This document shows positions 2,662-55,094 of a DNA stretch of 64,000 bases, one piece after another. A program made the translations under genes and the position numbers. Position 1 is the first letter of the stretch. Each line of letters opens with the position of its first letter. Origin of the DNA: an uncultured Candidatus Saccharibacteria bacterium (GTDB lineage: Bacteria > Patescibacteriota > Saccharimonadia > Saccharimonadales > UBA10212); the NCBI GenBank assembly GCA_964567555.1, contig CAZMNA010000004.1, forward strand, positions 6,234-70,233. The letters are read 5' to 3'. The notes under the pieces are model-generated. The model did no database searches. It saw only the letters and a list, made by a program, of their open reading frames with translations, and had not been told where the DNA came from.

Positions 2662-3669
2662 ATGGCACGGGCGCAGCTGGATGTATTAAGTGTCGGCGAC
2701 GTAGTCATAGACGATTTTATCCGTCTCTTGGATAACGAAGAGCGAGTAGAGAAACGCGATGGTGAGAGCTGGCTGGCTTTTCCGTTTGGCACCAAGATTC
2801 CATTTGACCACAGCGACGTCGTTCCCGGTGTGGGCAATGCTGCCAATGCGGCAGTGGCGTTTGCGCGCTTGGGTTTCCGTTCCGGATTGGTATCAAACGT
2901 TGGTGATGATGAGCATGGGCGCCAGATAACTTCCGCACACAAAGCAAATGATGTGGATACCCGCTTCATCCACATAAATCCTGGCAAAAAGAGCAACTAC
3001 CATTACGTACTTTGGTACAAGGCAGAGCGGACGATTTTAATCAGGCACGAAGAATATGATTACCACTGGCCGCGCTTTAGGGAGATTGATATCCCCGATT
3101 GGATTTACTTTAGCTCAGTCAGTAAACACGCACTGAATTATCATGATCAAATCGCTGACTGGCTGGACGAAAGCTCTGAAGTTAAGCTGGCCTTCCAGCC
3201 GGGCACTTTCCAAATAGAAGCGGGCGTCCACCGTCTGGCACGGATTTATAAACGCTCTGAAGTTTTGGCCGTCAACCGCGAAGAAGCCGCCACGATTTCC
3301 GGTGGCAAGCACAGTGACCTAGATGATTTGTTTGAACGCTTGCATAAACTCGGTCCTCGGATAGTCGTCATCAGCGACGGCCCGGCTGGGGCATATGCTT
3401 CTGACGGTGAAAAGAGGTTTAAGATGCCAATCTATCCTGATCCCAAAGAGCCGTATGACAGAACTGGCGCCGGTGATGCTTTTACCTCCACCTTTGTCGC
3501 CGCTATTATGAATGGCGCTGATATTGAGCAGGCGCTACTTTGGGCGCCGGTTAACTCTATGAGTGTCGTCCAAAAAGTCGGCGCTCAGGCAGGGCTTTTA
3601 ACCCAAGCCGAGGTTGAACATTATTTACGTGATGCGCCTAAATGGTACCACCCGGAGAGGATAAAATGA
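2662..3669 (+). CDS. PfkB-family carbohydrate/nucleoside kinase (ribokinase-like)
   Basis: N-terminal GVGNAANAAVAFARLG and C-terminal DRTGAGDAF (the DTxGAGDxF signature of the PfkB family). Confidence 0.8.
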   Translation: MARAQLDVLSVGDVVIDDFIRLLDNEERVEKRDGESWLAFPFGTKIPFDHSDVVPGVGNAANAAVAFARLGFRSGLVSNVGDDEHGRQITSAHKANDVDTRFIHINPGKKSNYHYVLWYKAERTILIRHEEYDYHWPRFREIDIPDWIYFSSVSKHALNYHDQIADWLDESSEVKLAFQPGTFQIEAGVHRLARIYKRSEVLAVNREEAATISGGKHSDLDDLFERLHKLGPRIVVISDGPAGAYASDGEKRFKMPIYPDPKEPYDRTGAGDAFTSTFVAAIMNGADIEQALLWAPVNSMSVVQKVGAQAGLLTQAEVEHYLRDAPKWYHPERIK

Positions 3670-4691
3670 GCCAAGCCTTGGCAGATCTATTGGGTAAGCC
3701 TAAGGAAGAAGTTGCCAAGTGGGTTGGGAACATGGAAGCAAGGACTGGCTTTAAGAGCCAGGACATCCGTGTTTTAGCAGATATGAACTTAAACTTGCGC
3801 CAAAAAATTTCCGCTTTGGGATTGGACCCAGACGACACGACTAGCGAGGAGCTCTACCATGCCTTAGTGGCGAAATACGGTAATGATTCGGAACTTATCA
3901 ACAAAGCTTTGGCCGTGGACGAGCGAGCAGACTTTGCGGCCCGCCAAAATCTAGCAATTGGTCTACTGAGTCACCTCGTACCGTCTGCCCACGGCTGGTC
4001 GCTCAAAAATACGGCAGCAAAGGCAATCATAAAGAACCTCCCACCCAAGAAAGTTATGAAGGTCTGGGGCTATCGCTCGGTTGACTCGCTACTCAAGCGT
4101 GAGGATGTTGCAGAGGTTGTGCTGGCCGCCAAGACAAGCGAGCCGACTATGTGGCAAAAAAACTTTGCTGCTGCCTCAAGGAAGGTGGGGCAGGCAGACT
4201 ACCAGCTGGCTCACGTGCGTGTTCTTAGACTCAAGGCCGAGCGCGACTACGGCGACGAATGGTGTGTAGAAAATGGTCAGCTGGCTGTGGTAGCGCTTAA
4301 CCCGGCCAAAACTCAGGATACGCCAGTTTTGTCCATGGCACTGCTGCTTTTAAAAGGAGTAGAGAGAACTAGCCTACGCTACGAGGCTAAGCCGCTAACT
4401 AAAATAAACCCGGCTCTATCTTTTTGGCAAGGCGCAGAACATTTACTGGCACGGGCCGAAGGTCCGCCTGTTTCGCTAAATATTAATGACGTTAGTCGCT
4501 CTCATGATGATGGCAACAAATTTGGAGAGCATTCCTTTGCCCACGCTGCTGACGGCTTGTTTAATGAACTCGCCAATAGCTATGAAGCTCTGGCTGCCCA
4601 AGTTTCTGGCGGAGCAGCTCAGTTGGAAGCTCAAGTTGATAAATCAATTAACCCTGTCCAAGACTTAGCGCTAGAGGCGGTTGAGGCCTAG
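3666..4691 (+). CDS. Hypothetical protein (no family recognised)
   Basis: Long ORF. ATG 3666 overlaps the kinase stop as ATGA, and the ORF ends 3 nt before the next start. No TM segments or known motifs seen. The ORF track lists an earlier start at 3642. Confidence 0.55.
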   Translation: MSQALADLLGKPKEEVAKWVGNMEARTGFKSQDIRVLADMNLNLRQKISALGLDPDDTTSEELYHALVAKYGNDSELINKALAVDERADFAARQNLAIGLLSHLVPSAHGWSLKNTAAKAIIKNLPPKKVMKVWGYRSVDSLLKREDVAEVVLAAKTSEPTMWQKNFAAASRKVGQADYQLAHVRVLRLKAERDYGDEWCVENGQLAVVALNPAKTQDTPVLSMALLLLKGVERTSLRYEAKPLTKINPALSFWQGAEHLLARAEGPPVSLNINDVSRSHDDGNKFGEHSFAHAADGLFNELANSYEALAAQVSGGAAQLEAQVDKSINPVQDLALEAVEA

Positions 4692-5282: not shown

Positions 5283-7247
5283 ATGATGGCGAAGTTCCAT
5301 CTTAAAAGTGAATACAAGCCGACGGGCGATCAGCCGGCGGCGATTGAGGCCTTGACCAAAGGTTTGAAAAAAGGGGAGAAGAGCCAAGTTCTTTTGGGCG
5401 TTACCGGCAGTGGGAAAACCTTCACCATGGCCAATGTCATCAATAACGTGCAGCGGCCTACTCTAGTACTAAGTCATAACAAAACTCTAGCCGCCCAGCT
5501 TTATAACGAATTTCGCCAATTTTTCCCAGATAACGCCGTACACTATTTTGTAAGCTACTTTGATTATTACCAGCCGGAAGCCTACATGCCGCGCACTGAC
5601 ACCTATATTGAAAAAGACAGCGACATTAATGAAGAAATTGACCGTTTGCGGCATGCTGCTACGTCGGCTCTTCTGTCCCGGAGTGACGTAATTATAGTAG
5701 CGTCTGTTTCATGCATCTACGGTATAGGCTCGGTGCAGGATTATAACGATATGGCCGTCCGTCTAAAAGTTGGCGAGCGGAGAGTACGCGACAAATTCCT
5801 TCGCCAGCTGACGGACATCCAATATCACCGAAACGATGTGGCCTTTGAGCGCGGCAACTTTCGTGTACGCGGTGATGTGGTAGATATCTACCCGGCCGGC
5901 GAGGAGTCGGCCTACCGGGCAGAGTTTTTCGGCGACGAACTAGAACGTATTACCCGGATTAATCCCCTGACCGGTGAAATTGAAGCCAGTCTTGATCGAA
6001 CTACCATTTTCCCAGGCTCCCACTACGTCACTCCGGAAGAAAAACTTAAGAAGGCTCTGTCCAAAATTCGTGCCGAAGCCGATGAGCGTTTGACCTGGTT
6101 CAAAAAAGAAAATAAATTGCTAGAAGCTCAGCGGCTAGAGCAACGTGTTAAGTTTGACCTTGAAATGCTAGAACAAACCGGCTTTGTGAAGGGGATTGAA
6201 AATTACAGCCGCTATTTGACCAACCGCGAGCCAGGCGAACAGCCGGCCACTCTTTTGGACTACTTCCCGGACGATTACTTGATGGTGGTTGACGAGTCCC
6301 ATATGAGCATCCCGCAGGTGCGCGGCATGTACCACGGCGACCGCGCCCGAAAAGAAGTACTGGTAGAGTATGGCTTCCGCTTGCCATCGGCCCTAGACAA
6401 TCGGCCACTTAACTTCACGGAATTTGAGCACCATCTCAATCAAACAGTCTATGTTTCTGCCACACCGGCGGAGTATGAGCTTTCCCGCTCCCCCGAGCCC
6501 ATCCAGCAGGTTATTAGGCCAACCGGTCTACTGGACCCGGTTATTGAAGTTCGTCCGGTCAAAGGCCAGATTGATGACTTAGTTGCGGAGATTAAGTCAT
6601 CAACCAGCAAAAGCCAGCGGGTGTTGGTGACGACGTTAACTAAACGAATGGCCGAGGATCTGGCGGAATACCTGCAGGAGCTGCAAATGAAAGTCGCTTA
6701 CATTCATTCAGAAATTGAGACGTTGGAACGGACTGACATTTTGCGTGATCTGCGGCTCGGGATTTACGATGTGCTAGTCGGGATTAACTTGCTACGCGAA
6801 GGCTTGGATTTACCGGAAGTATCACTTGTAGCCATCATTGATGCCGATAAAGAAGGTTTCCTGCGCAGTGAGCAAGCGCTTATCCAGACTGTCGGCAGGG
6901 CAGCTCGCCACGTGGAGGGCCGAGTCATTATGTACGCCGATCATATTACGGGTTCCATGCAGCGTACAATTGATGAGACTAATCGTAGACGAAAAATCCA
7001 AGAGACTTATAACAAGAAACACGATATTACTGCAACCAGCATAAGTCGTGAGATTGGCGAGATGTTGCCGCGAACGGTTCAAGAAGAGACCAAACCCAAG
7101 CTGGATCTAAAAAAGATTCCAAAAGAAGAATACAAATTCTTAATTAAAGACTTGACGTCACAGATGGATTTAGCGGCTGCCAACTTAGAATTTGAAAAGG
7201 CCGCTGAGCTGCGCGACCTTATCGCCGAAGTCAAAGCCAAACTGTAG
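5283..7247 (+). CDS. uvrB: Excinuclease ABC subunit B
   Basis: Walker A GVTGSGKT, helicase motifs, and a C-terminal UVR motif [18 protein letters not shown]. An alternative ATG lies at 5286. Confidence 0.95.
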
Positions 7248-41232: not shown

Positions 41233-44200
41233 ATGGTCAAAGGCATGGGCGTTATCGGAAAGCGCACTTACTTTACTAGTTCGGATGATATTATTAGTCC
41301 ACCGAATCTGGTTGATCACCAAAACAAATCATTTGAATGGTTTGTTAGAGAGGGCTTAGGCGAACTACTAGAAGAGATCAGCCCAGTTGATGATTACACC
41401 GGCACAAAGCTAAGCCTACGTTTCAAGGGCTACCACTTTGAAGACCCCAAGATGACTGAGTCTGAGGCACGGGAGAATAACGTTAGCTATGATGCGCCGC
41501 TAAAAGCCACGGTTGAGCTGACCAATAAAGTAACCGGCGAGGTCAAAGAGCAGGAAATATACTTAGGCGATTACCCGTGGATGACCACCCGCGGAACGTT
41601 TGTTATTAACGGAGCCGAGCGAGTTGTCGTTAGCCAGCTGATCAGGTCCAGCGGCGTGTTTTTCACAGGAGATCCTCATAGTGGTACCAACCTTTATGGA
41701 GCAAAGATAATTCCGGTACGTGGTGCGTGGCTGGAATTTGAAACGGCGGCTAGTGGCGTGCTTTACGTAAAGATTGACCGAAAGCGCAAGATTGCTGTAA
41801 CTACACTTTTGCGGGCACTTGGCATGAGCGCTGAGCAAATCAAGGACGCTTTCAAGCACGTTGATTCCGGCGAGAATAGTTTTGTTGATGCAACATTGGA
41901 CAAAGACCCGTCGGGCTCTTCAAACGAGGCCTTAATTGAGGTTTACCGCCGTCTGCGGCCAGGTGATCTGGCGACTGTTGACAACGCTCGTTCTTTGATT
42001 GAGAACATGTTTTATAACTTTAAGCGCTTTGACTTTGGGCGGGTCGGCCGGTATAAGCTCAATAAGCGTTTGAATCTGGACGTTGATAACACTACTGCCA
42101 ACAGAATTTTACGGCTTGAAGATCTCCTGGCCATCATTGCAGAAATTATTCGTCTAAACGTTACTCAGGACCCCGCAGACGAGATAGACTCGCTAGCTAA
42201 TCGACGCGTTAAATTGGTCGGTGAGCTAGTACAACGCCAGTTTAGGATAGGTTTGCTCAGGATGGAGCGCAACGCTAAGGATCGTATGAGTATGTCAGAG
42301 ATTGAAACGGTCACGCCGGCCCAGCTAATCAACGCCCGACCTGTTGTGGCTGCGGTTCGCGAGTTCTTTGCCAGCTCACAGCTGAGTCAGTTCATGGATC
42401 AAATCAACCCGCTTTCTGAACTTGCTCATAAGCGACGTCTTTCATCTATGGGACCCGGTGGTTTATCGCGCGAGCGAGCCGGCTTTGAAGTCCGTGATGC
42501 ACACGCTACCCACTACGGCCGCATTTGCCCAGTAGAAACACCGGAAGGGGCCAACATTGGTCTTGTTTTGAATCTTGCAGGCTTTGCACGTATAAACGAA
42601 TACGGCTTCATTGAAACCCCTTACCGCAAAATCATTAATGCAGTAGCTGCCCGCGACAGCGCGGGCCACATCGCCAACGGTGATTTAACAGACGAAAAGG
42701 GCAAGGTCATCATTAAAAGCGGTGCTGTTATAACCCCAGCTGCCGCTAAACGCCTAGCTGCCGTCAAGTCTCAAGCCACCTGGCCAATTAAGGCAAAAGT
42801 AACCGACAAAATTGTTTACTTAGATGCCGCCGAGGAAGAGCAGGCTGTCGTCGCGGGAGCCGGTAATGAAATTGATGCCAATGGTTACTTTATAGAACCG
42901 CGTCTCAGTGCCCGCAACCGGCTTGAGCCGGGCGAATTTGATGCTAACGAAATAACACACATGGATAGCTCTCGGTCACAGACCATTGGCTCTAGCGCCG
43001 GTCTAATCCCGTTTGTGGAGAAGAACTACGTGCTGAGAAGCTTGATGGGCTCAAACCAGCAACGTCAAGCTGTGCCCTTGATTAAACCCGAACCACCCAT
43101 TGTTGGCACCGGCCTAGAATCAGTCGTTGCTGCCAACACGGGGCAGATCATAGTAGCCGAAGACGATGGTACTGTCCAAAAGGCAACAGCTGATGAAATC
43201 ATTGTTAAGTACAAGTCTGGTAAGAGCGGTAAGTATCACCCCAGTCACTTTATTCGCAGCAATGAAGGAAGCTCGGTCAATCAGCTAGTTGTTGTCAACA
43301 GCGGCGATAAAGTAAAAGTTGGGCAGCCGCTGGCCGAAGGCATGAGTATTGCTGATGGCGAACTTGCTCTTGGCAAAGATTTACTTGTGGCTTTTATGCC
43401 ATGGGCTGGTTATAACTTCGAGGACGCCATTATCCTGTCCCGCCGTCTTGTAGAGGATGATGCTCTGACCTCAATCCACATTGTTGATTACATGACCGAA
43501 GTCCGGGAGACCAAGCTCGGCCCCGAGATTGTCACTGGTGACATTCCTAACGTTTCGGAAGAAAGTCTACGCCACTTAGATGAAGACGGCATCGTTCGTA
43601 TTGGTGCCGAAGTACACCCGGGTGACATTTTAGTAGGCAAGATTACCCCTAAGGGTGAGCAAGAACTTTCCAGCGAGGAACGCCTTCTGCGTGCGATTTT
43701 TGGCGAAAAAGCCAAAGAGGTTCGTGACACTTCTCAGCGCATGAGTACTGGCCGCCACGGCAAAGTGGTTGGCGTAAAGGTGTTTTCACGAGCTAACGGT
43801 CACGAGCTAAAAGCGGGCGTTATTATGCAAATCCAAGTTTTTGTGGCACAGATGCGCAAAATTAGTGTCGGCGACAAGCTTGGTGGCCGTCACGGCAACA
43901 AAGGTGTCATTGCCAGAATTTTGCCGGTTGAGGACATGCCATTTACAGAAGACGGCACACCGATTGATATCATCTTAAACCCACTTGGCGTACCAAGCCG
44001 TATGAACATTGGCCAGCTGTTCGAAACGCACCTCGGCATGGCGGCAAGAGCTTTAGGCATTCGGGTGGCTAGTCCGGCCTTCAACGGTGTGCCGATTCCT
44101 AGGATCAGGGAGCTCCTCGTAGAAGCTGGCCTCTCAGAAGACGGCAAGCAGCAGCTCTATGACGGCCGCAGCGGTCACGCCTTTTCGGAAAGAACCACTG

Positions 44201-44778
44201 TCGGCAGTATGTATATCATCAAGCTAAATCACATGGTGAGCGACAAAATTCATGCCCGTTCCACTGGTCCTTACACGATGGTTACCCAACAGCCGCTGGG
44301 TGGAAAAGCCCAAAATGGCGGCCAACGATTTGGCGAAATGGAAGTCTGGGCGCTGGAAGCTTATGGCGCAGCCAATACCTTACAGGAAATGCTAACTATA
44401 AAGTCAGACGATGTTTATGGGCGGGCCAAAGCCTATGAGTCAATCATAAAAGGCATGCCTATTCAGGGGCCGAAGGTGCCAGAGAGCTTCAATGTGCTAG
44501 TCAAGGAGCTGCAAGGACTCGGTCTAAAGGTTGACCTAATGACAAAAGGCAAGGTTGTGGACGCCGAAGAAGTATTAGCAGAGAACATTAAAGACGAGGC
44601 CAAGCATGCACCGGATAAAGAGATAGCTCCGGAACGTACGCCCGAGGATGGGGCAACCGAAGAGGCTGTTGAACAAGAAATTCGGATGATGGACGATCCT
44701 ATGATTGCAGTTATGAGCGACGATTCGACGGCATCCAAACCTACTAACGAAGGTGGAGAGAAGGCCAAAAAACAATGA
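41233..44778 (+). CDS. rpoB: DNA-directed RNA polymerase beta subunit
   Basis: Full-length RpoB motifs (..GYNFEDAI.., ..NMGQ/NIGQLFETHLG.., ..GGQRFGEMEVWALEAYGA..). An alternative ATG lies at 41245. Confidence 0.97.
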   Translation: MVKGMGVIGKRTYFTSSDDIISPPNLVDHQNKSFEWFVREGLGELLEEISPVDDYTGTKLSLRFKGYHFEDPKMTESEARENNVSYDAPLKATVELTNKVTGEVKEQEIYLGDYPWMTTRGTFVINGAERVVVSQLIRSSGVFFTGDPHSGTNLYGAKIIPVRGAWLEFETAASGVLYVKIDRKRKIAVTTLLRALGMSAEQIKDAFKHVDSGENSFVDATLDKDPSGSSNEALIEVYRRLRPGDLATVDNARSLIENMFYNFKRFDFGRVGRYKLNKRLNLDVDNTTANRILRLEDLLAIIAEIIRLNVTQDPADEIDSLANRRVKLVGELVQRQFRIGLLRMERNAKDRMSMSEIETVTPAQLINARPVVAAVREFFASSQLSQFMDQINPLSELAHKRRLSSMGPGGLSRERAGFEVRDAHATHYGRICPVETPEGANIGLVLNLAGFARINEYGFIETPYRKIINAVAARDSAGHIANGDLTDEKGKVIIKSGAVITPAAAKRLAAVKSQATWPIKAKVTDKIVYLDAAEEEQAVVAGAGNEIDANGYFIEPRLSARNRLEPGEFDANEITHMDSSRSQTIGSSAGLIPFVEKNYVLRSLMGSNQQRQAVPLIKPEPPIVGTGLESVVAANTGQIIVAEDDGTVQKATADEIIVKYKSGKSGKYHPSHFIRSNEGSSVNQLVVVNSGDKVKVGQPLAEGMSIADGELALGKDLLVAFMPWAGYNFEDAIILSRRLVEDDALTSIHIVDYMTEVRETKLGPEIVTGDIPNVSEESLRHLDEDGIVRIGAEVHPGDILVGKITPKGEQELSSEERLLRAIFGEKAKEVRDTSQRMSTGRHGKVVGVKVFSRANGHELKAGVIMQIQVFVAQMRKISVGDKLGGRHGNKGVIARILPVEDMPFTEDGTPIDIILNPLGVPSRMNIGQLFETHLGMAARALGIRVASPAFNGVPIPRIRELLVEAGLSEDGKQQLYDGRSGHAFSERTTVGSMYIIKLNHMVSDKIHARSTGPYTMVTQQPLGGKAQNGGQRFGEMEVWALEAYGAANTLQEMLTIKSDDVYGRAKAYESIIKGMPIQGPKVPESFNVLVKELQGLGLKVDLMTKGKVVDAEEVLAENIKDEAKHAPDKEIAPERTPEDGATEEAVEQEIRMMDDPMIAVMSDDSTASKPTNEGGEKAKKQ

Positions 44779-47700
44779 GAAACTACACGCCAGGTACCAA
44801 CATAGCCGATTTTGATGCCGTTCGCCTAGCGATTGCTAGTCCGGAAGACATCATGGAGTGGAGCTATGGAGAGGTGACCAAACCAGAAACAATTAACTAT
44901 CGTACTCAGAAACCCGAACGCGACGGGCTATTCTGTGAACGAATATTCGGCCCAGTTAAAGACATCAATCCGCACGACGCTAAGTTCAAGGGAGTCCGGA
45001 GCCGAGAAGCAGCTGTTGATAAAAATGGCGAACTAGTAACTCGTTCAATAGTACGACGCGAGCGTATGGGTCATATTAACTTAGCGTCTCCTGTCGCCCA
45101 CATTTGGTTTTTGCGTGGCACTCCGAGTGCCATCGGCCTCGTTCTTGGCATAACGGTAAAAAATCTAGAGCGGGTATCATATTTTGCTAGCTATATCGTC
45201 AAGTCAGTTGATGCAGAAAAACGAGATAAGATTTGGAAAGACAAACAAGCTGAAAATCAAGTTGCTGAAAAAGCAATCAATGCCCGCTATGAAGCCGAAG
45301 CCGCCAAAGAGGGCGCTGACGTCAAATCTATAGCCGAAGCAAGGACTCGGGAGTTAGAGGAACTAGCACAAGGCTTTGAACTATATAAAAGCCAGGTGGA
45401 TAGTTTGGATAAATACCGCTTAATGAGCGAAACTGACTTTCGCAACTTGCCCGATGAGCTGGCAGAGCTCGCAACTGTTGGCATGGGCGGCTCAGTCATA
45501 AAAGAGTTATTAGAAGAAGTAGAGCTTAAGAAGTTAATTAAAGAGCTGAATAAAGAAGCCGAAGAAGCCAAGGGACAACGCAAAAAGAAAATAATGAAGC
45601 GCCTAAGACTGCTAGAAAGTATGGAGCGTGCTGGCATAAAGCCATCTAGCATGTGTGTATCTGTATTACCAGTCATCCCGCCCGACCTGAGACCTATGGT
45701 CCAGCTTACTGGTGGCCGCTTTGCCACAAGCGACCTTAATGACCTTTACCGACGTGTGATTAATCGTAACAACCGCTTAAAGAAACTAATTGAGCTCAAC
45801 GCGCCTGAAGTGATTAAGCGCAATGAGCAGCGTATGCTTCAAGAAGCGGTTGATGCTCTCATAGATAACAACAGTGCCAGGTCAGGTAGAGCAGTAGCTG
45901 CTACAGGACAGCGCCGGCGCCTAAAATCACTTTCCGACATGCTCAAAGGCAAACAGGGTCGCTTCCGCCAGAACCTGCTCGGCAAACGTGTAGACTATTC
46001 CGGTCGGTCGGTGATTGTGGCTGGTCCAGAGCTAAAAATGTATCAGTGCGGTCTGCCTAAAACCATGGCGTTAGAGCTATTTAAGCCCTTTGTCATTGGG
46101 CGCCTCATAGATCAAGAGCTGGCCCATAATATCCGCAGTGCTACCAGAATGATTGAAATGGGCGAGCCATCCGTCTGGGACGCGCTGGATGAAGTAATTC
46201 ACAATAAGTACGTTTTACTTAACCGCGCCCCAAGTTTGCACCGATTATCAATTCAGGCTTTCCAGCCCGTCTTGATAGAAGGTAAAGCTATCCAGTTGCA
46301 TCCGCTGGTGTGTAAAGGTTTTAATGCCGATTTCGACGGCGACCAGATGGCCGTTCATCTGCCACTATCCGAAGCTTCTCAAACTGAAGCCCGGGAAATT
46401 ATGGCTTCAAACAAAAACTTGCTAAAGCCAGCCGACGGCTCACCGATACTCCACGTAGAGCAAGACATCGTTTTGGGCTGCTACTACCTAACTTACGTTA
46501 AGCCGGGCACTGAAAAAGCAGAGGCTAAAAACTTCTCTGGCGTAGACGAAGTTATCTTAGCGCTAGATAGACAAAAAATAACTATGCAGACCCGTGTTTT
46601 AGCGCCTTTCCGGGGCGAGTTGCGTGACACTACGGCCGGTCGCCTGCTATTTAATGAAATTCTACCCGAGGACTTTACGTTTCAGAACGAGGCTATGACC
46701 TCGAAAAAACTAGATAAAGTTATGTCCAAAATTTACCAAAAGTATGGTCAAGATAAGACCGCTGAGATAGCTGACGACTTAAAAGACTTAGGCTTCCGTT
46801 ACGCAACTCTTTCTGGCCTATCTATTGGTATGGGCGACTTCACTGATATCGCGGTACTGCCAAAGGTCGTGTCCGAAGGTGAAAAACGTGCTACGGAAAT
46901 TTCTGAGCAATATAGCCAGGGCTTTATCACCGATGACGAGCGCTATCGTCTGACAGTAGAAACTTGGACGGACGTAGATACCGCAGTTGAAAAGGCCCTG
47001 GCTGAGCAATTCGCTAAAGAGGATAACACGATGTCTATCGCGGTCGCGTCTGGCGCTCGCGGCAACATTAGCCAGATGAAAAAATCTGTCGGCATGCTCG
47101 GCATGTTTGCCGATGCTACGGGGCGTGCGATTGAGCTGCCTGTAAGAAGCAACTACAAATACGGTCTTAATCCGCTGGAATACTTTACTGCCACGCGAGG
47201 CACCAGAAAATCATTAATCGACATTGCGCTTCGCACGGCTGATTCCGGCTACTTGACCCGACGTTTGGTAGACGTAGCCCAAGATGTGTTTACACTAGAA
47301 GAAGATGTAGCTGACCCAGGCTTTTTGACTCATCGCGAGGATGCAAAACTTGTTGGTGTGAATTTCTCAGCCAGGCTGGCTGGTCGCTACAGTGCCGATA
47401 AACTCAAAAACTATGTTAAGTCTGGTGAACTAATCACTCCAGAAATTGCTCAAGCTATCGACGAGGACGTTTCGGTCAACTCAGTTCGAATCATGAGTGT
47501 GCTGTCTTGCACAAGCTCTCGAGGCGTAAGCCAAAAATGCTATGGCATTGATTTAGCAACTGGCGAATTGGTAGCCGCCCATCACCCGATTGGAGTGATC
47601 GCCGCTCAGTCTATTGGTGAACCAGGCACTCAGCTTTCCCTGGACTCTAAGCACCGTGCCGGCGCTGTCACCGCTGGCGACGACGTGACCCAAGGCTTGA

Positions 47701-48581
47701 CTCGCGTAGAAGAAATTCTGGAAGTACGTACGCCCAAGGGCCAAGCGTATCTAACTGACATCTCGGGCAAAGTAAAGGTCTGGGAAGAGGGCGATACTTA
47801 CATGGTTCAAGTGACCGGTAAGGAGCAAGACCCCCTTACTATCCCGTTAAATGGCCGCGAATCTAGTCTAAGTGATGGCGATGAAATTGCTATTGGTGAT
47901 ACGGTTGCATCTGGCAACGCAGGCACAGAGGCAATTGTCGCAGCTATGGCCGGCAAGATTAAACTCACTGAAACGTCAGTCACTATCACACCGACTGCAA
48001 AGAGCGTAGTCCGTTATGAAATCCCCGGCTACAAGCAACTAACCGTAAAGGACGGCGATACCGCGGTGGCTGGTCAGCGTTTGACGAACGGTTCTATAAA
48101 CCTGCACGAGCTGATGCGCTTGCAGGGCGTAGAAGCAACTCAGCGCTACATCATGACAGAAGTACTTTACATCTTTGCTAGCCAAGGCCAGAACATAGCC
48201 GATAAGCATTTGGAAGTCATTGTCCGGCAAATGTTTAGCCGAGTCCAGATTGAAGATTCTGGTGACAGCGAGTTCATCACCGGCGATATCGTCAGCAAGC
48301 TGGCGGTAGAAGAAGTCAACGAGGAATTGACTAAGGGCGGCAAGCAACCTGCCCGCTATATCCAACTTTTACTTGGCATCACCAAGGCATCGCTTGCAAC
48401 TGATTCGTTCCTTTCGGCCGCTTCGTTCCAAGACACAACCAGAGTGCTGATTGCTGCAGCTACAAGCGGCAAAGTAGATCATTTATACGGTCTGAAGGAG
48501 AACGTTATCTTAGGCCGAAAGATTCCGGTCGGCACGGGTGCTCACAATAGAGGCGATGGGGCTGTTGAACCCAAAGGGTAA
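44775..48581 (+). CDS. rpoC: DNA-directed RNA polymerase beta' subunit
   Basis: ATGA overlap with rpoB. The catalytic NADFDGDQM motif is present along with ..[13 protein letters not shown].. Confidence 0.97.
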
Positions 48582-48603: not shown

Positions 48604-49014
48604 ATGCCAACAGTAAATCAACTAGTCAGAAAACCGCGCAAATCGACCGGACACAAAAGTAAGAGTCCGGCACTTTTGCGAGTGACCAACAACCTGAAGA
48701 CCCGAAGCTACGAGAAGCCCGGCCCATTCAAGCGGGGAGTATGTATACGTGTTACTACCAAAACTCCTAAGAAACCAAACTCTGCCCTTCGAAAGGTAGC
48801 TCGTGTGCGCCTAACCAACGGTCATGAAGTTTGGGCTTACATTGGCGGCGAAGGCCACAACCTACAAGAGCACGCGGTTGTACTAGTGCGCGGTGGCCGC
48901 GTCAAAGACTTACCGGGCGTACGTTATCATATTGTTCGCGGTTCACTTGACTTGCAGGGTGTTCAAAATCGCAAGCAGGGTCGCTCTAAATACGGTGCAA
49001 AGAAGCCAAAATAG
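48604..49014 (+). CDS. rpsL: 30S ribosomal protein S12 (with ~13-aa insertion after ..SPAL)
   Basis: [10 protein letters not shown].., ..[17 protein letters not shown].., ..[15 protein letters not shown].. Confidence 0.95.
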
Positions 49015-49016
49015 CG

Positions 49017-49496
49017 ATGCCGCGTAAAGTTACTAAATCGTTGGTGAGACAGGTTCAACCCGATAGGCTATACAATAACGTGTTTGTGACAAAGCTCATC
49101 AACCGAGTAATGCTCGGCGGTAAAAAACAATTGGCCGAAAAAATAGTCTACGGCGGCATGCAAAAGGCTGCCGATAGGCTCAAGATTCAAAACCCTTTGG
49201 AGGTTTTTGAGCAAGCAATGAAAAATATCCAGCCTCACATGGAGACTCGGTCTCGCCGAGTCGGTGGCGCCAACTACCAGATTCCGTTTGAAGTCAGTGG
49301 GCAGCGCCAACAGCACCTCACGATTATGTGGTTTGTTGAGGCAGTTCGGGCTCGCTCCGGCATGCCAACAGATGAGCGAATTGCCGCAGAGCTAGTCGAG
49401 GCTTATAACAATGGTGGTGCAGCAGTAAAGAAAAAAGAAGACACCCACCGAATGGCCGAGGCCAATCGCGCCTTCGCCCACTTTGCCAGGAGCTAA
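49017..49496 (+). CDS. rpsG: 30S ribosomal protein S7
   Basis: ..GKKQLAEKIVY.., ..RRVGGANYQIP.., ..AHFARS C-terminus. Confidence 0.95.
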   Translation: MPRKVTKSLVRQVQPDRLYNNVFVTKLINRVMLGGKKQLAEKIVYGGMQKAADRLKIQNPLEVFEQAMKNIQPHMETRSRRVGGANYQIPFEVSGQRQQHLTIMWFVEAVRARSGMPTDERIAAELVEAYNNGGAAVKKKEDTHRMAEANRAFAHFARS

Positions 49497-49767
49497 GTTG
49501 GAACTGCTCAATAGGTGTAATAATTGTTCGGGTATATGCGACGACTTGTTCGAGGTCGCTGCTAGGGCTGAGCTTATATCAGCTAGAACAGTAGATGAAA
49601 ATGTTGCAAGGACTAGGGATGCCTTAGACTTAGCAGCAGACATGGTTACACGAAACAGGACTACATCCATTGACACATTACGCACAGTGGCGAACTGCAT
49701 GCTTACCGAACTAGAAATTGGTGAAAATATAACAAAGTTAAAGATGGAAGCAGAAAATGGCAGATAA
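49483..49767 (+). CDS. Uncertain: 94-codon ORF (TTG start) filling the 260-bp rpsG-fusA spacer; may instead be a structured RNA or leader
   Basis: The only starts are TTG (49483 or 49498); the first ATG is at codon 54. The ORF has atypical codons (AGG/AGA, ATA) and a CNNCSGIC cluster. The region also folds into a long-range helix (49555-49564 with 49631-49641) plus two internal hairpins. Confidence 0.3.
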
Positions 49768-51856
49768 AAAATACGAATTAAAAGACCTCCGAAACATTGG
49801 CATTATTGCCCATATTGATGCCGGTAAAACTACCACCACAGAAGGTATCCTGTATCGCACTGGCCTAAAGCATAAGATCGGCGCCGTGCACGAAGGCGAA
49901 ACGACAACCGACTGGATGGCTCAGGAAAAGGAACGTGGCATCACCATAACCGCTGCAGCCGTTACTGCTTTTTGGAAAGACCACAAGATTAACATCATTG
50001 ACACTCCTGGCCACATTGATTTCACGGTTGAGGTAGAAAGATCCTTGCGCGTGCTTGACGGTGCTGTGGTTGTCTTTGATGGCAAGATGGGCGTAGAGAG
50101 CCAGTCTGAAACAGTCTGGCGCCAAGCCGACAAGTACAATGTGCCGCGCATATGTTTTATTAACAAAATCAATCAAACGGGCGGGGATTTTTACAAGTCG
50201 CTTGACAGCATTCATCACCGTCTCAGTAAGCGTGCTTTACCAATCCACTTGCCCATCGGCTTTGAACAATCAGTTAACGGTGTTATAGATCTTCTTTCTA
50301 TGAAGGCTTACACGTACAGAGAGTTCACTGATCATGAACTGATTGAAACTGAAATTCCGGCCGATATGCTGGACAAAGCTAAACGCTACCGGTCGCTTCT
50401 TGTCGAAGCAGCCGTAGAGGCTGACGATGACACCATGATGAAGTACCTCGAGGAGGGCGAAGACTCGCTTTCTGATGAAGAAATCCGCACGGCAGTCCGC
50501 AAGGCCGTCTTGACTGGCAAATTTTATGCGGTTACAGGCGGTGATGGCCGTGGCGTGATCGTAGAAAAGCTACTTGACGCTGTGACTGATTTTTTGCCAT
50601 GTCCGCTTGACCGTGGTTCAGTTTGGGGAACCAACCCGAAAAATGGCGAGGAGATTGAAAGAAAACCTGATATAAATGATCCATTTGCCGCATTAGCCTT
50701 TAAGATTGCCACTGACCCATTTGTTGGTAAATTGGCATTTTTTAGGGTTTACTCAGGCAAAGTTACAGCAGGCAGCTATATATTAAACGGCTCTACAGGC
50801 GAGAGAGAGCGGGTTGGACGCATTGTTCGGCTTCACGCCGATAAGCGAGAAGACGTAACAGAGATTGAAGCTGGAGATATCGCTGCTATCGTCGGCCTGA
50901 AGGGCACGACTACCGGTAATACTCTTTGTGACGTCAGTAATCCGATATTGCTTGAAAGTATTAAATTCCCAGAACCGCCAGTGTCAATTGCAATCGAGCC
51001 TAAGACTAAGGCTGATCAGGAGAAGATGAGCATAGCATTGCAGCGCCTGGCCGAAGAAGACCCGACTTTCAGGATCCGCGTGGACCACGAGACCGGACAG
51101 ACAATTATTTCCGGCATGGGCGAGTTGCACCTTGAAATTATTGTTGACCGTATGAAACGCGAGTTTACTGTGGAGGCCACGATCGGAGAACCACAGGTTG
51201 CCTACCGTGAAACTATTCGCAAGGACGGTGTCGAGCAGGAAGGTAAATTCATAAGGCAATCCGGCGGCCGCGGTCAGTACGGCCATGTATGGCTTAGGCT
51301 TTCCCAGAACGAAGCAGGCAAGGGCTTTGAATTTAAAAATTCTATTAAGGGCGGTTCTGTACCAGCCGAATACATACCAGCCGTTCAGGCCGGGATTGAG
51401 GAAGCCATGAGCAACGGTGTGATTGCTGGCTACCCGGTAGTTGACATACGTGCGGAACTTTACGATGGTTCTTTTCACGAAGTTGACTCTTCTGAAATGG
51501 CATTTAAAATTGCCGGCAGTATGGCTTTCCAGGAGGGTGTCAAAAAAGCCAACCCCGTACTAATGGAACCTATTATGAAGGTGGTTGTAGTTACTCCCGA
51601 AGAGTTTATGGGAGACGTAATCGGCGATTTAAACGGCAAGCGGGGGCGCGTGGAGGCCATGGAAGACCTGAACCCAGGCATCAAAGAAATCACCGCCTTT
51701 GTGCCGCTTGGCGAAATGTTTGGCTACACCACAAACCTGCGGAGCATGACTCAAGGCCGAGCAGCTTCGTCTATGGAGTTAGATCACTACGCGGACATGC
51801 CCGCAAGCGTGGCCCAGCAAATCATTGCTAAGTCGGGCAAGACAGACTCTAAATAA
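49757..51856 (+). CDS. fusA: Elongation factor G
   Basis: ..[17 protein letters not shown].., ..DTPGHIDF.., with domains II-V present. Confidence 0.97.
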
Positions 51857-51873
51857 GCTACTGCCTATAACCC

Positions 51874-51902
51874 TTTACAAAAGCAGCTAGTTTATCTATA
51901 AT
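51874..51902 (+). promoter_or_regulatory. Internal promoter for tuf
   Basis: TTTACA (51874-51879), a 17-nt spacer, then TATAAT (51897-51902). AAGGAG lies 10 nt before ATG 51986. Confidence 0.55.
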
Positions 51903-51985: not shown

Positions 51986-53167
51986 ATGGCAGATTTTGAT
52001 CGCTCAAAGCCTCACGTAAACGTTGGCACTATGGGTCATGTTGACCACGGAAAAACAACTCTAACCGCAGCTATTACCTCAGTTTTAGCCAAGAAGTTAC
52101 CTTCCGATATTAATAAACCGGTCGCCTACGACCAGATCGACAATGCACCCGAAGAAAAACAGCGTGGTATTACTATTGCTACCTCTCACCAGGAGTATGA
52201 ATCTGAAAAGCGTCATTACGCGCACGTTGATATGCCTGGTCATGCCGACTACGTTAAGAATATGATCACCGGTGCCGCTCAGATAGACGGGGCCATATTG
52301 GTTGTATCTGCCGCTGATGGTCCAATGCCTCAAACCCGCGAGCACGTGCTTCTGGCCCGCCAGGTTGGTGTTCCTAAAATTTTAGTTTTTCTAAACAAGA
52401 TGGATCTGGCCGACGCAGAGTTGGTAGAGCTGGTTGAAGAAGATGTCCGCGATCTGCTCGCAAAATATGAATTTGACCGTGACTGCCCAATCATCAAGGG
52501 TAGCGCTACCAAAGCTCTAGAGGGCGACGGGCCTAACGAAGACGCTATCATGGAATTGGTCAAGGCTATGGATGACTACATCCCCGAGCCAGTCCGAGAC
52601 TTAGACAAGCCTTTCCTGATGCCTATTGAAGACGTCTTTTCGATTAAAGGTCGTGGCACCGTTGCCACCGGCCGTATTGAAACCGGAGTAGTGAAGATTA
52701 ACGAAGAAGTCGAAATCGTAGGTATTCGTCCAACCAAAAAGACAGTTGTAACTGGTATTGAGGCTTTCAAGAAAAATCTTGACCAAGGCCAGGCCGGCGA
52801 TAATGCGGGCGTCTTACTGCGTGGTATTGAGCGCGAGGACATCGAGCGGGGTCAAGTTCTAGCTAAGCCTGGGACCATAACACCTCACACCGAATTTGAC
52901 TCCGAAGTTTACATCCTAACCAAAGAAGAAGGCGGCCGACACACACCTTTCTTTAAAGGCTACAAACCCCAGTTTTACTTCCGCACCACAGATGTTACCG
53001 GTGAAGTTGAACTGCCAGCCGACAAAGAAATGGTCATGCCAGGCGATACTATCTCCTTCAAGGTTAAATTATTGGCGCCAATTGCGATGGATCAGGGCTT
53101 GCGCTTCGCTATTCGTGAAGGCGGCCGAACCGTCGGCGCCGGCGTCGTCACCAAAGTCACCAAATAA
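51986..53167 (+). CDS. tuf: Elongation factor Tu
   Basis: ..[13 protein letters not shown].., ..DMPGHADY.., ..NKMD.. Confidence 0.98.
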
Positions 53168-53499
53168 TGACAGCAGACACTAAAGAGCCGGAAGTAAAAC
53201 AGAGGATACGGATACGCCTCAAAGCCTATGACCACAAAGTCATAGATCAAAGCTCAAAGCAAATAGTAGATACTGCCCTAAGAACAGGCGCTAAAATTTC
53301 CGGCCCTATTCCATTGCCAACCAAAAAGAGTACCTTTACTGTCATTAAAAGCCCGCATGTCTACAAAAAGGGCCGTGAGCAGTTTGAAATGCGTGTCCAC
53401 AAGCGCTTAATTGATATATCTGACCCCACGCCCAAAACTATAGATTCACTTATGAACCTGTCTTTGCCCGCCGGCTGTGACGCCGAAATCAAGATGTAG
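53167..53499 (+). CDS. rpsJ: 30S ribosomal protein S10
   Basis: ..[16 protein letters not shown].., ..[23 protein letters not shown].. The start overlaps the tuf stop (TAATG). Confidence 0.95.
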
Positions 53500-53514: not shown

Positions 53515-54261
53515 CTAGTTACTCAGTATGAATGTCGATCTAGAAAGGCGTTTTTTGCGTGCTTTTTGAGCCATCTCTAAATCACGTCTCATACTGTCCT
53601 TTACCCGGGCCGTTAGGGCTCTAATTTCTGGAGTTAGGGCTCTAAGATCGCCGCGGCTATTCATATCAAATCCCTCCACCTTATCCACCGGAATTTCTTC
53701 ACCGTAGACAATATCTATGTGGTGTCGTTCCCGCGTCCCTGCAATCCCAGCTGTGGTTATAGGCAGGCCATAAGCTAAAGCCATGGTCGCTGGGCCGCTT
53801 TTTACTTCATCTCCCACAACGTACGGATCGTGGCTATATCTGGATTCTTGGGCAAAGTTCACAATCGCACAGCCGGATTTTACTAGTTGGTCAAGCTTGT
53901 GTAAGAATTTAACTTGCTCGCTTAGAGGCCGGCTTTTTTCTATATATGTCATTCCCGCAGGCACTAAAACTGCATTTGCTAGTTTACTGAGCCGATTCGT
54001 CTCACCCAACTGGCTTTTTGCCAAAAAATGCAGGTATCGCTTTGCTTCCCAGGCAGTCACGCCCAAAGCTGAAACATCAAGCCAGTCCTCGTGGTTTGGG
54101 ACCACAAGATGCGGACCGTCAGCTGCTAGCGCTTCTACGTTGTCAGACTCAACTCCACCGCGAAACTTAAAGAAACCTTTGCTCATCAAGCGGAATAGGT
54201 GATAGAGCACCACGTCCGGAGGTGCACTTGAATCGTTACTGGTATATAGACGCTCGAACAT
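53515..54261 (-). CDS. PlsC-family (lysophospholipid/1-acyl-sn-glycerol-3-phosphate) acyltransferase
   Basis: HX4D motif in ..[12 protein letters not shown].. and ..FAQESRY.. (the EGTR-like position is degenerate). 248 aa. Confidence 0.65.
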
Positions 54262-54482: not shown

Positions 54483-55094
54483 GTGAAGGCACTCATAACC
54501 AAAAAAGTGGGTATGGCTAGCGTCATAGATGAGAATGGCGCGGTTATTGGCGTTACCCTTCTTTCGGCTTCTCCCAATATTGTTACAAATATAAAAACCA
54601 TTGAACAGCACGGTTATGAAGCTTTTGCGCTGGGCTACGGTGAGAATGAGAAAGCCGGGAAGACCCTCAAGAACCAATACAAGGCAGCTGGCGTTACCCC
54701 AAAGATTATTAGTGAGTTCCGCACAGACGAGGCGGATGCAGAGCTTAAAGTCGGCGATAAGATTAGCGCCGACGTTTTTAATGTTGGCGACAAGGTTGAT
54801 GTGACTGGTCTGAGCAAAGGCAAAGGATTTGCTGGCACTATTAAGCGTCACAACTTCAAGCTTGGCCGTAAGACCCACGGTGGCATGAGCTATCGCCGTC
54901 CCGGCTCTATCGGCTCAATGTATCCGCAGCATATTCTCAAAGGCAAAAAAATGGCTGGTCAAATGGGCGTCAAGCGCATTACCACGAAACGTTTAAAGGT
55001 AGCCCTAGTTGATATAGAGAGTAACGTTATCGGGGTTGTTGGCGCGGTGCCCGGGCCTCGTAAGGGTGCTGTTCTCATTAGAGAGGCTAAATAG
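54483..55094 (+). CDS. rplC: 50S ribosomal protein L3
   Basis: GTG start 5 nt after AAGGAG; ..KGKGFAGTIKRHNF.. motif. Confidence 0.95.
   Translation: MKALITKKVGMASVIDENGAVIGVTLLSASPNIVTNIKTIEQHGYEAFALGYGENEKAGKTLKNQYKAAGVTPKIISEFRTDEADAELKVGDKISADVFNVGDKVDVTGLSKGKGFAGTIKRHNFKLGRKTHGGMSYRRPGSIGSMYPQHILKGKKMAGQMGVKRITTKRLKVALVDIESNVIGVVGAVPGPRKGAVLIREAK

Follow-up and report, generated by a model that had tools for sequence, protein, structure and literature searches.

The 260-nt spacer between rpsG and fusA in the str operon of an uncultured Candidatus Saccharibacteria bacterium probably represents a translationally coupled, small protein-coding cistron that occupies a hypervariable slot between these two genes. 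The spacer lies in a 64,000-nt stretch of DNA (contig CAZMNA010000004.1, positions 6,234 to 70,233), which is referred to here as the window and whose own numbering is used throughout. Few gene strings in bacteria are as conserved as the str operon, in which rpsG and fusA normally lie next to each other. In the window, rpsG, which encodes ribosomal protein S7, is located at 49017–49496 on the plus strand, with its stop codon TAA at 49494–49496 (ORF list; Pfam Ribosomal_S7, E 5e-54). The fusA gene, encoding elongation factor G (EF-G), is located at 49757–51856 on the same strand (ORF list; Pfam domains precomputed for an identical gene). The interval of 260 nt between them (49497–49756) agrees with an earlier description made from the sequence alone (the sequence-only reading), and a single plus-strand open reading frame (ORF) fills it.

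The str operon of this lineage has an additional cistron at this junction, which is hypervariable and whose products belong to no known family. This coupled cistron is retained in a large clade of Patescibacteria, with its position and reading frame conserved and its sequence not conserved.

Conservation of the reading frame in relatives

The S7–EF-G junctions were collected from 160 loci in a species-representative genome collection and in metagenome contigs, and the S7 stop and the fusA start were located in each. The nearest relatives in public genomes are metagenome-assembled genomes of Candidatus Saccharimonadales or Saccharibacteria. Spacer lengths were compared in 62 distinct Saccharimonadales loci, and 40 distinct spacers of 150–700 nt were used in the frame test. 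The lengths are bimodal, with 18 spacers shorter than 100 nt, one of 100–149 nt, 39 of 150–500 nt and four longer than 500 nt. The spacer thus reaches at least 150 nt in 43 of the 62 loci (about 70%). The sequence-only reading regarded the spacer as an unusual one-off insert, which is wrong, as most of the sampled Saccharimonadales have a long spacer filled by an ORF.

The longest stop-free stretch on the plus strand covers on average 92% of the spacer, compared to 47% in dinucleotide shuffles, and coverage of at least 80% was found in 38 of the 40 spacers. Plus-frame openness was significant against shuffles (p ≤ 0.05) in 37 of them. The minus strand is 59% open on average and reaches at least 80% in only 6 spacers. 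In the window itself, the plus frame is fully open across the spacer, and none of 200 dinucleotide shuffles matched it. The ends of the ORFs are also constrained. The slot ORF starts 0–14 nt past the S7 stop in 35 of the 40 loci, and in 33 it ends between −30 and +12 nt relative to the fusA start. The start codon is ATG in 39 and GTG in one, and the encoded proteins are 55–168 amino acids long (median 110). The window ORF shares this layout: it fills the spacer, starts just after the S7 stop and ends at the fusA start. Relative to S7, the slot ORFs use the three frames almost equally (14, 14, and 12), which excludes a programmed frameshift or readthrough extension of S7.

Since the plus reading frame is conserved and the RNA sequence and fold are not, the conserved feature of the spacer is its reading frame rather than its RNA. 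The sequence-only reading named relatives without the spacer, or without a conserved frame, as evidence against a functional element. The comparison found that the frame is conserved and the sequence is not. Eight long rpsG-fusA spacers from outside Saccharimonadales contain no gene-like ORF, with a plus-frame coverage of 0.36–0.75 in six and about 0.9 in two.

The rpsG-fusA junction also tolerates larger insertions. The spacer measures 657 nt in locus L010, 860 nt in L030 and L120, 992 nt in L104 and 2578 nt in L038. The spacers of L010 and L030 each contain two consecutive ORFs.

Start, stop and coupling of the probable small gene

The plus-strand ORF of the window spans 49483–49767 and has 94 codons when counted from its first TTG. 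A second in-frame TTG is located at 49498, and no ATG occurs in this frame close to the 5′ end. Based on the ORF list, the gene callers and the codon score, the small gene is placed at 49498–49767 on the plus strand, with a TTG start, 89 codons and the stop codon TAA at 49765–49767. A Shine-Dalgarno (SD)-like AGGAG is found at 49488–49492, within the last rpsG codons and 5 nt before TTG 49498. The predicted anti-SD duplex energy is −6.6 kcal/mol for this start and +1.9 kcal/mol upstream of TTG 49483. The 94-codon form, which adds 49483–49497, was judged unlikely because no SD-like site precedes it and because the ORFs in relatives start after the S7 stop.

TTG 49498 is located about 1–2 nt past the S7 stop, and the ORF ends at +11 in fusA. 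The end of the small gene (AAT GGC AGA TAA) and the start of fusA (ATG GCA GAT AAA) therefore share 11 nt at 49757–49767, and the same +11 overlap with fusA occurs in two relatives (L022 and L027). As judged from its sequence, this overlap is a putative termination-reinitiation junction. The SD of fusA in the window is weak (−3.6 kcal/mol, compared to a random mean of −3.0 kcal/mol), which fits a hand-over of ribosomes via the ATGGCAGATAA overlap. In long-spacer loci generally, fusA keeps its own SD, with a mean of −5.4 kcal/mol compared to −3.0 kcal/mol at random.

In the proposed mechanism, ribosomes that end S7 synthesis at TAA 49494–49496 would reinitiate at TTG 49498, and the AGGAG within the last rpsG codons would assist this start. 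They would translate 89 codons and terminate at TAA 49765–49767, inside the fusA start region, and this termination would pass ribosomes on to fusA, whose own SD is weak. The small gene would be the local occupant of a slot in which sequence turnover leaves most occupants mutually unrecognisable. The window ORF may thus be translated from TTG 49498 into a stable protein, which would be a cytoplasmic, acidic, predicted helical protein with four Cys residues.

The sequence-only reading described an ORF of 94 codons with TTG starts only (49483 or 49498), a CNNCSGIC cluster and an overlap with fusA at 49757–49767, and the sequence bears this out. Its count of rare codons holds for AGA (two) and ATA (three), but not for AGG, given as four where the ORF contains five. 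These codons are rare genome-wide, at 0.5% (AGG), 0.6% (AGA) and 1.2% (ATA) of all codons.

Exactly the 89-amino-acid product was called by three independent gene callers, and an ORF on the opposite strand was chosen by two others. Calls also disagree among database records with DNA identical to window positions 49392–49767 (L001 and L002 versus L003, L006, L007 and L174), which carry the 102-amino-acid antisense ORF, the 89-amino-acid plus-strand ORF or nothing. The slot ORF of one relative is labelled as a hypothetical protein by NCBI. The small-protein family is thus annotated inconsistently, as hypothetical, uncalled or on the wrong strand, and the strand disagreement between callers makes such loci a useful test case for the annotation of small ORFs.

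Codon composition and selection

When stop codons are excluded, the frame of the ORF is more gene-like than both other frames for 40 of 41 ORFs, compared to 38% of random stop-free sequences. The frequency of G at first codon positions is 0.38 in the slot ORFs, close to that in S7 and EF-G (0.39). Their third codon positions are A/T-rich, unlike those of the highly expressed neighbours. A per-codon log-likelihood model was trained on the window's own genes. Under this model, the window ORF scores 0.108 per codon, while real genes have a mean of 0.212 and a 5th percentile of 0.092, and off-frame sequences have a 95th percentile of −0.118. With sense codons only, its own frame scores −0.036, compared to −0.437 and −0.250 for the other two frames.

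The slot ORF of locus L018 has one relative by profile search, P0006 (72–74% identity), whose DNA is locus L169. Between these two ORFs (74% amino acid identity), the nonsynonymous substitution rate (dN) is 0.161 and the synonymous rate (dS) is 1.12, giving a dN/dS of 0.14; the only indel spans three codons and is in frame. For S7 of the same two loci, dN is 0.038, dS is 2.64 and dN/dS is 0.014. For EF-G, dN is 0.047 and dS is saturated, so that dN/dS is not computable. The slot product of L018 and L169 is under purifying selection, and its rate of evolution is about four times that of S7 and EF-G. In L169, fusA is followed by a 95-amino-acid ORF without a Pfam match (5433–5720) and then by an antisense chorismate synthase gene, not by tuf.

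Turnover and distribution of slot occupants

Sequence similarity between slot ORFs is limited to a few pairs. With phmmer, links were found between L014 and L018 (E 1.5e-12), L018 and L019 (E 0.009), L026 and L027 (E 7e-4) and L027 and L110 (E 3e-10). By BLASTP, the ORFs of L027 and L110 share 27% identity over 106 amino acids (E 8e-12). The flanking S7 and EF-G of these two loci are 77% and 83% identical, which is as distant as the window and its relatives. Similarity of the ORFs at such a distance suggests that at least part of the slot family is old.

Other loci have near-identical flanks and unrelated ORFs of different length, including L027 and L114 (S7 95% identical), L010 and L013, and L023 and L024 (flanks 93–95% identical for both pairs). 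The L027 ORF resembles that of the distant L110 and not that of its close relative L114, a discordance that would fit either cassette exchange or episodic divergence. The slot contents of L027 and L028 are also unrelated. Slot turnover may therefore proceed by divergence or replacement, possibly with the conserved flanks as sites of recombination. In the window, the borders of the spacer show neither repeats nor hallmarks of mobile elements. The L028 slot (3521–3886) encodes a 121-amino-acid four-helix bundle protein of the 23S_rRNA_IVP/bAvd-like type (PF05635, E 5.6e-35). The 23S rRNA intervening-sequence protein family is otherwise known from inserts in rRNA genes.

The distribution of the slot was examined on a rough neighbour-joining tree of S7 and the EF-G N-terminus. 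The slot is filled throughout a large environmental clade (mostly soil and freshwater by record names), with scattered losses, and the oral TM7 lineages have short spacers. The tree neighbours nearest the window (L133 and L089) carry Cys-free ORFs, and the next ones (L091 and L098) carry Cys4 ORFs. In oral Nanosyncoccus-type Saccharibacteria (L042–L045), no EF-G match was found in the 3 kb downstream of rpsG. In L043 (3480–6474), the ORFs after rpsG, identified by reading their translations, are a glyceraldehyde-3-phosphate dehydrogenase-like gene and sugar-phosphate genes. The str operon of these oral genomes is broken exactly at the rpsG-fusA junction.

Cysteine pattern and predicted structure

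Cys makes up 2.17% of the residues in slot ORFs, compared to 0.40% in the long ORFs of the window. The Cys content is bimodal, with 20 ORFs having at least four Cys and 20 having none or one. About half of the occupants belong to this Cys class, with four or five Cys, in which an N-terminal pair (CxxC, often CxxCP, or Cx6C) is combined with a C-terminal pair with a spacing of 4–16. The window ORF has four Cys arranged as 3+1 rather than 2+2. Cys7, Cys10 and Cys14 are encoded in the CNNCSGIC motif (49516–49539, plus strand), and the single C-terminal Cys67 is encoded at 49696–49698 on the plus strand. The relative position of Cys67 (0.75) equals that of the C-terminal Cys of relatives. From their arrangement, the paired Cys may bind a metal (zinc) and so clamp together the two ends of a helical body. 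The slot occupants are mostly acidic (isoelectric point, pI, of 4.2–5.9) and hydrophilic, without a hydrophobic segment, and the 89-amino-acid product of the window is likewise acidic (pI 4.6). The low-confidence model of the L018 family (predicted local distance difference test, pLDDT, 68.1) shows a long hairpin of helices, with the C-terminal Cys pair at a small beta knuckle.

Searches with known families were mostly negative. The window ORF matched no Pfam family, including PF05635, which among the slot occupants was matched by that of L028 only. Among 21 Cys-class ORFs, Pfam gave one sub-threshold match to Zn_ribbon_6 (E 0.098) and no zinc ribbon above noise. PHROGs and PADLOC gave no matches to the window ORF and 20 Cys-class relatives, and NCBIfam gave two chance-level matches. 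PDB sequence searches with the window ORF and the L018-family profile returned chance matches only (E above 1). Within the library searched, literature searches on a small protein between rpsG and fusA, on the Saccharibacteria str operon and on small Cys-rich Saccharibacteria proteins found nothing relevant.

Evidence against the small gene and alternative explanations

Several results weigh against reading the window ORF as a functional member of the slot family. It matches only itself among 1.84 billion protein representatives and 5.8 billion clusters. The second member of its cluster (P0008) is the same protein with a leading L. It shows no similarity to the other occupants by tblastn (160 loci), phmmer or hhalign, and it has no paralogue elsewhere in the window. 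Comparison by hhalign of the two alignable subfamilies with each other, and of each with the window ORF, also gave no signal. As no homologue is detectable, the place of the window ORF in the Cys family follows solely from its position and Cys pattern. It is the sole slot occupant with a TTG start, and its codon usage only just falls within the range of real genes. The AlphaFold2 model of the window ORF is all-helical, with a pLDDT of 56.5, too low for a fold search. For the L018-family model, Foldseek found no structural neighbour in PDB (best E 3.4). Metal binding and any link to translation are interpretations. Ten same-species contigs from different samples (L001–L008 and L174, with L007 retrieved twice) were compared, and nine of them have the same spacer sequence. 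The tenth, L008 (918 nt, from ERZ27245386), differs by one single-nucleotide polymorphism, a G to T change at 49597 (L008 position 613) that turns Glu34 of the plus-strand ORF into a stop codon. This nonsense variant is either a real polymorphism or an assembly error. The contigs are otherwise identical, so that dN/dS for the window ORF itself is not computable.

These points can be read as favouring a translated spacer, in which the frame is kept open only for the transit of ribosomes from rpsG to fusA, for coupling or mRNA protection, and the peptide is functionless; the window might then hold a decaying or newly arisen occupant. Such a spacer would be expected to conserve its openness and coupled ends and not its sequence, as found here. 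The A/T-rich third positions unlike those of the neighbours, the TTG start, rare codons and missing homologues of the window ORF, the L008 nonsense variant and the weak SD of fusA in the window are all in line with it. However, stop avoidance alone is not expected to produce the gene-like, frame-specific composition seen in 40 of 41 ORFs. Nor does a functionless peptide agree with the dN/dS of 0.14 between L018 and L169, with the homology of the L027 and L110 ORFs over a deep divergence, or with Cys being enriched fivefold in a paired pattern. Coupling needs no spacer, because 18 of the 62 relatives lack one, and fusA retains its own SD in long-spacer loci (−5.4 versus −3.0 kcal/mol). We therefore consider a functionless translated spacer improbable, though less firmly so for this species in view of its TTG start, poor codon adaptation and nonsense variant.

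The sequence-only reading left the choice between a small protein and an RNA element open. The conserved frame, coupling, composition and dN/dS favour the protein, and the Rfam searches, the folding results and the lack of shared sequence speak against the RNA. Such an RNA would either regulate fusA in cis from its leader, for example as an operator bound by S7, or be a small noncoding RNA. The three helices proposed for the plus strand in 49554–49641 do exist, namely a long-range helix of 49554–49564 with 49631–49641 and hairpins at 49567–49583 and 49613–49627, although a functional element is not supported. An inverted repeat (49558–49572 with 49623–49637) is 80% complementary. The plus-strand spacer RNA folds modestly better than shuffles (z-score −1.98, with 3 of 200 shuffles as good), compared to a z-score of −0.15 on the minus strand, and the 2-nt gap between rpsL and rpsG offers no room there for an S7 operator of the Escherichia coli type. 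On the other hand, the long-range helix is missing from the minimum-energy fold. The Rfam scan suggested as a check gave no relevant match: at the gathering score, only one tRNA matched in the whole window and nothing in the spacer, and at E values up to 10, region 49300–49900 gave two chance-level matches only. The spacers of 35 relatives have a mean folding z-score of −0.40, compared to −0.52 for fusA-internal controls (Mann-Whitney p 0.48). They share no nucleotide similarity except between identical duplicates and are not alignable, which leaves nothing to covary, and an RNA would not explain the strand- and frame-specific ORF signal. The RNA reading is largely refuted at the family level, and for the spacer as a whole it is very unlikely. 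The open minus strand noted by the sequence-only reading is present as well, as an ORF of 102 codons with an ATG start (49392–49700, read from 49700 to 49392). It is open across the spacer (p 0.025 versus shuffles) and is called as a gene in L001 and L002. It was judged not to be a gene, and we give this possibility almost no weight. The antisense ORF runs against an otherwise co-directional gene string and shares 105 nt with the 3′ end of rpsG. Its codon score is 0.024, where the 5th percentile of real genes is 0.092, and the one Pfam match it has (E 0.042) falls well short of the threshold. Only 6 of 40 relatives have an open minus strand, near the shuffle expectation, and by codon reading the L008 variant introduces a stop into the antisense frame too.

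Possible roles and comparison with known systems

For the small protein-coding cistron, the operon context suggests a role in translation or transcription, and the pattern of turnover points to a gene of the conflict or cargo type that rides on guaranteed expression. We tentatively regard the small gene as cargo that makes use of the high expression gained by coupling within the str operon and is under conflict-like selection specific to its lineage, a reading that we hold to be possible. A direct accessory acting on EF-G or the ribosome is ranked next and is only slightly less likely. A more elaborate scenario seems quite remote. In this scenario, the junction would be a dedicated slot with expression guaranteed by coupling, and small Cys-clamped helical proteins would diversify there or be swapped by recombination through the two ultra-conserved flanks. 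Their targets would be EF-G or the ribosome, and they would take part in an arms race, for instance with inhibitors of the episymbionts' translation that come from hosts or phages. In a variant of it, the slot would be a cradle in which the obligatory translation of a spacer gives birth to new proteins.

The E. coli-type str operon (rpsL-rpsG-fusA-tufA) has the same gene order, and the tight start/stop junctions here imply coupling. In E. coli, S7 exerts translational feedback on the str operon, fusA is coupled to rpsG, and the S7 operator is located in the rpsL-rpsG gap of about 100 nt. The operon in the window differs by the extra cistron between rpsG and fusA. The S7 operator site is without a counterpart, as the rpsL-rpsG gap is 2 nt and no conserved spacer RNA was found.

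The slot ORFs also resemble small zinc-ribbon or Cys4 proteins, including forms of the ribosomal proteins L31, L33, L36, S14 and S18, which are likewise small, have two Cys pairs, are encoded among translation genes and occur in Cys-containing and Cys-free forms at one position. Unlike these, the slot proteins are acidic rather than basic and mostly helical by prediction, and their C-terminal Cys spacing is variable (4–16). They evolve about four times faster than S7 and EF-G, whereas ribosomal proteins evolve slowly. A ribosomal protein identity was rejected on the basis of the pI of 4.6, a dN about four times that of S7 and EF-G and the absence from 18 of 62 relatives. FusB/FusC-type EF-G-binding proteins consist of a helical domain and a Cys4 treble-clef zinc finger. 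This combination of a helical body and a Cys4 site is similar, and the neighbourhood makes a link to EF-G conceivable. None of the 21 Cys-class ORFs matches such a Pfam model at E ≤ 0.1, however, and the slot ORFs are about half the size.

Variable slots between core genes that are exchanged by homologous recombination, such as capsule and O-antigen loci, likewise have ultra-conserved flanks and unrelated contents in close relatives, and the occurrence of similar ORFs in distant backgrounds (L027 and L110) adds to the likeness to exchanged variable slots. The rpsG-fusA slot differs in holding a single small ORF instead of a pathway and in lacking flanking repeats or mobile hallmarks in the window, and recombination here is only presumed. 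Small genes are also found in other highly expressed loci, as with the 23S rRNA intervening-sequence proteins, the family to which the L028 occupant belongs. In the slot, the rate at which small proteins turn over when high expression is guaranteed can be studied in a natural setting. Its products are candidate lineage-specific partners of the translation machinery, in organisms that already have unusual ribosomes.

Genomic context

According to the ORF list, the spacer lies in a co-directional string on the plus strand, rpoB-rpoC-rpsL-rpsG-X-fusA-tuf-rpsJ, where X is the small gene. The other members are rpoB (41233–44778), rpoC (44775–48581), rpsL (48604–49014), tuf (51986–53167) and rpsJ (53167–53499), all on the plus strand. 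The median gap between ORFs of at least 100 amino acids in this compact genome is 21.5 nt, so that a noncoding gap of 260 nt would be unusual here. Where gaps of 150 nt or more occur elsewhere in the ribosomal operons, they presumably match small ribosomal-protein genes in size.

A 247-amino-acid acyltransferase (PF01553, E 8e-9) is encoded on the minus strand at 53515–54261, between rpsJ and rplC (54483–55094), and this antisense gene breaks the otherwise co-directional tuf-S10 operon string. The 129-nt gap between fusA and tuf contains a near-consensus sigma-70-like promoter sequence at 51874–51902 (TTTACA and TATAAT separated by 17 nt, 11 of 12 matches), and tuf may therefore have its own promoter in this gap.

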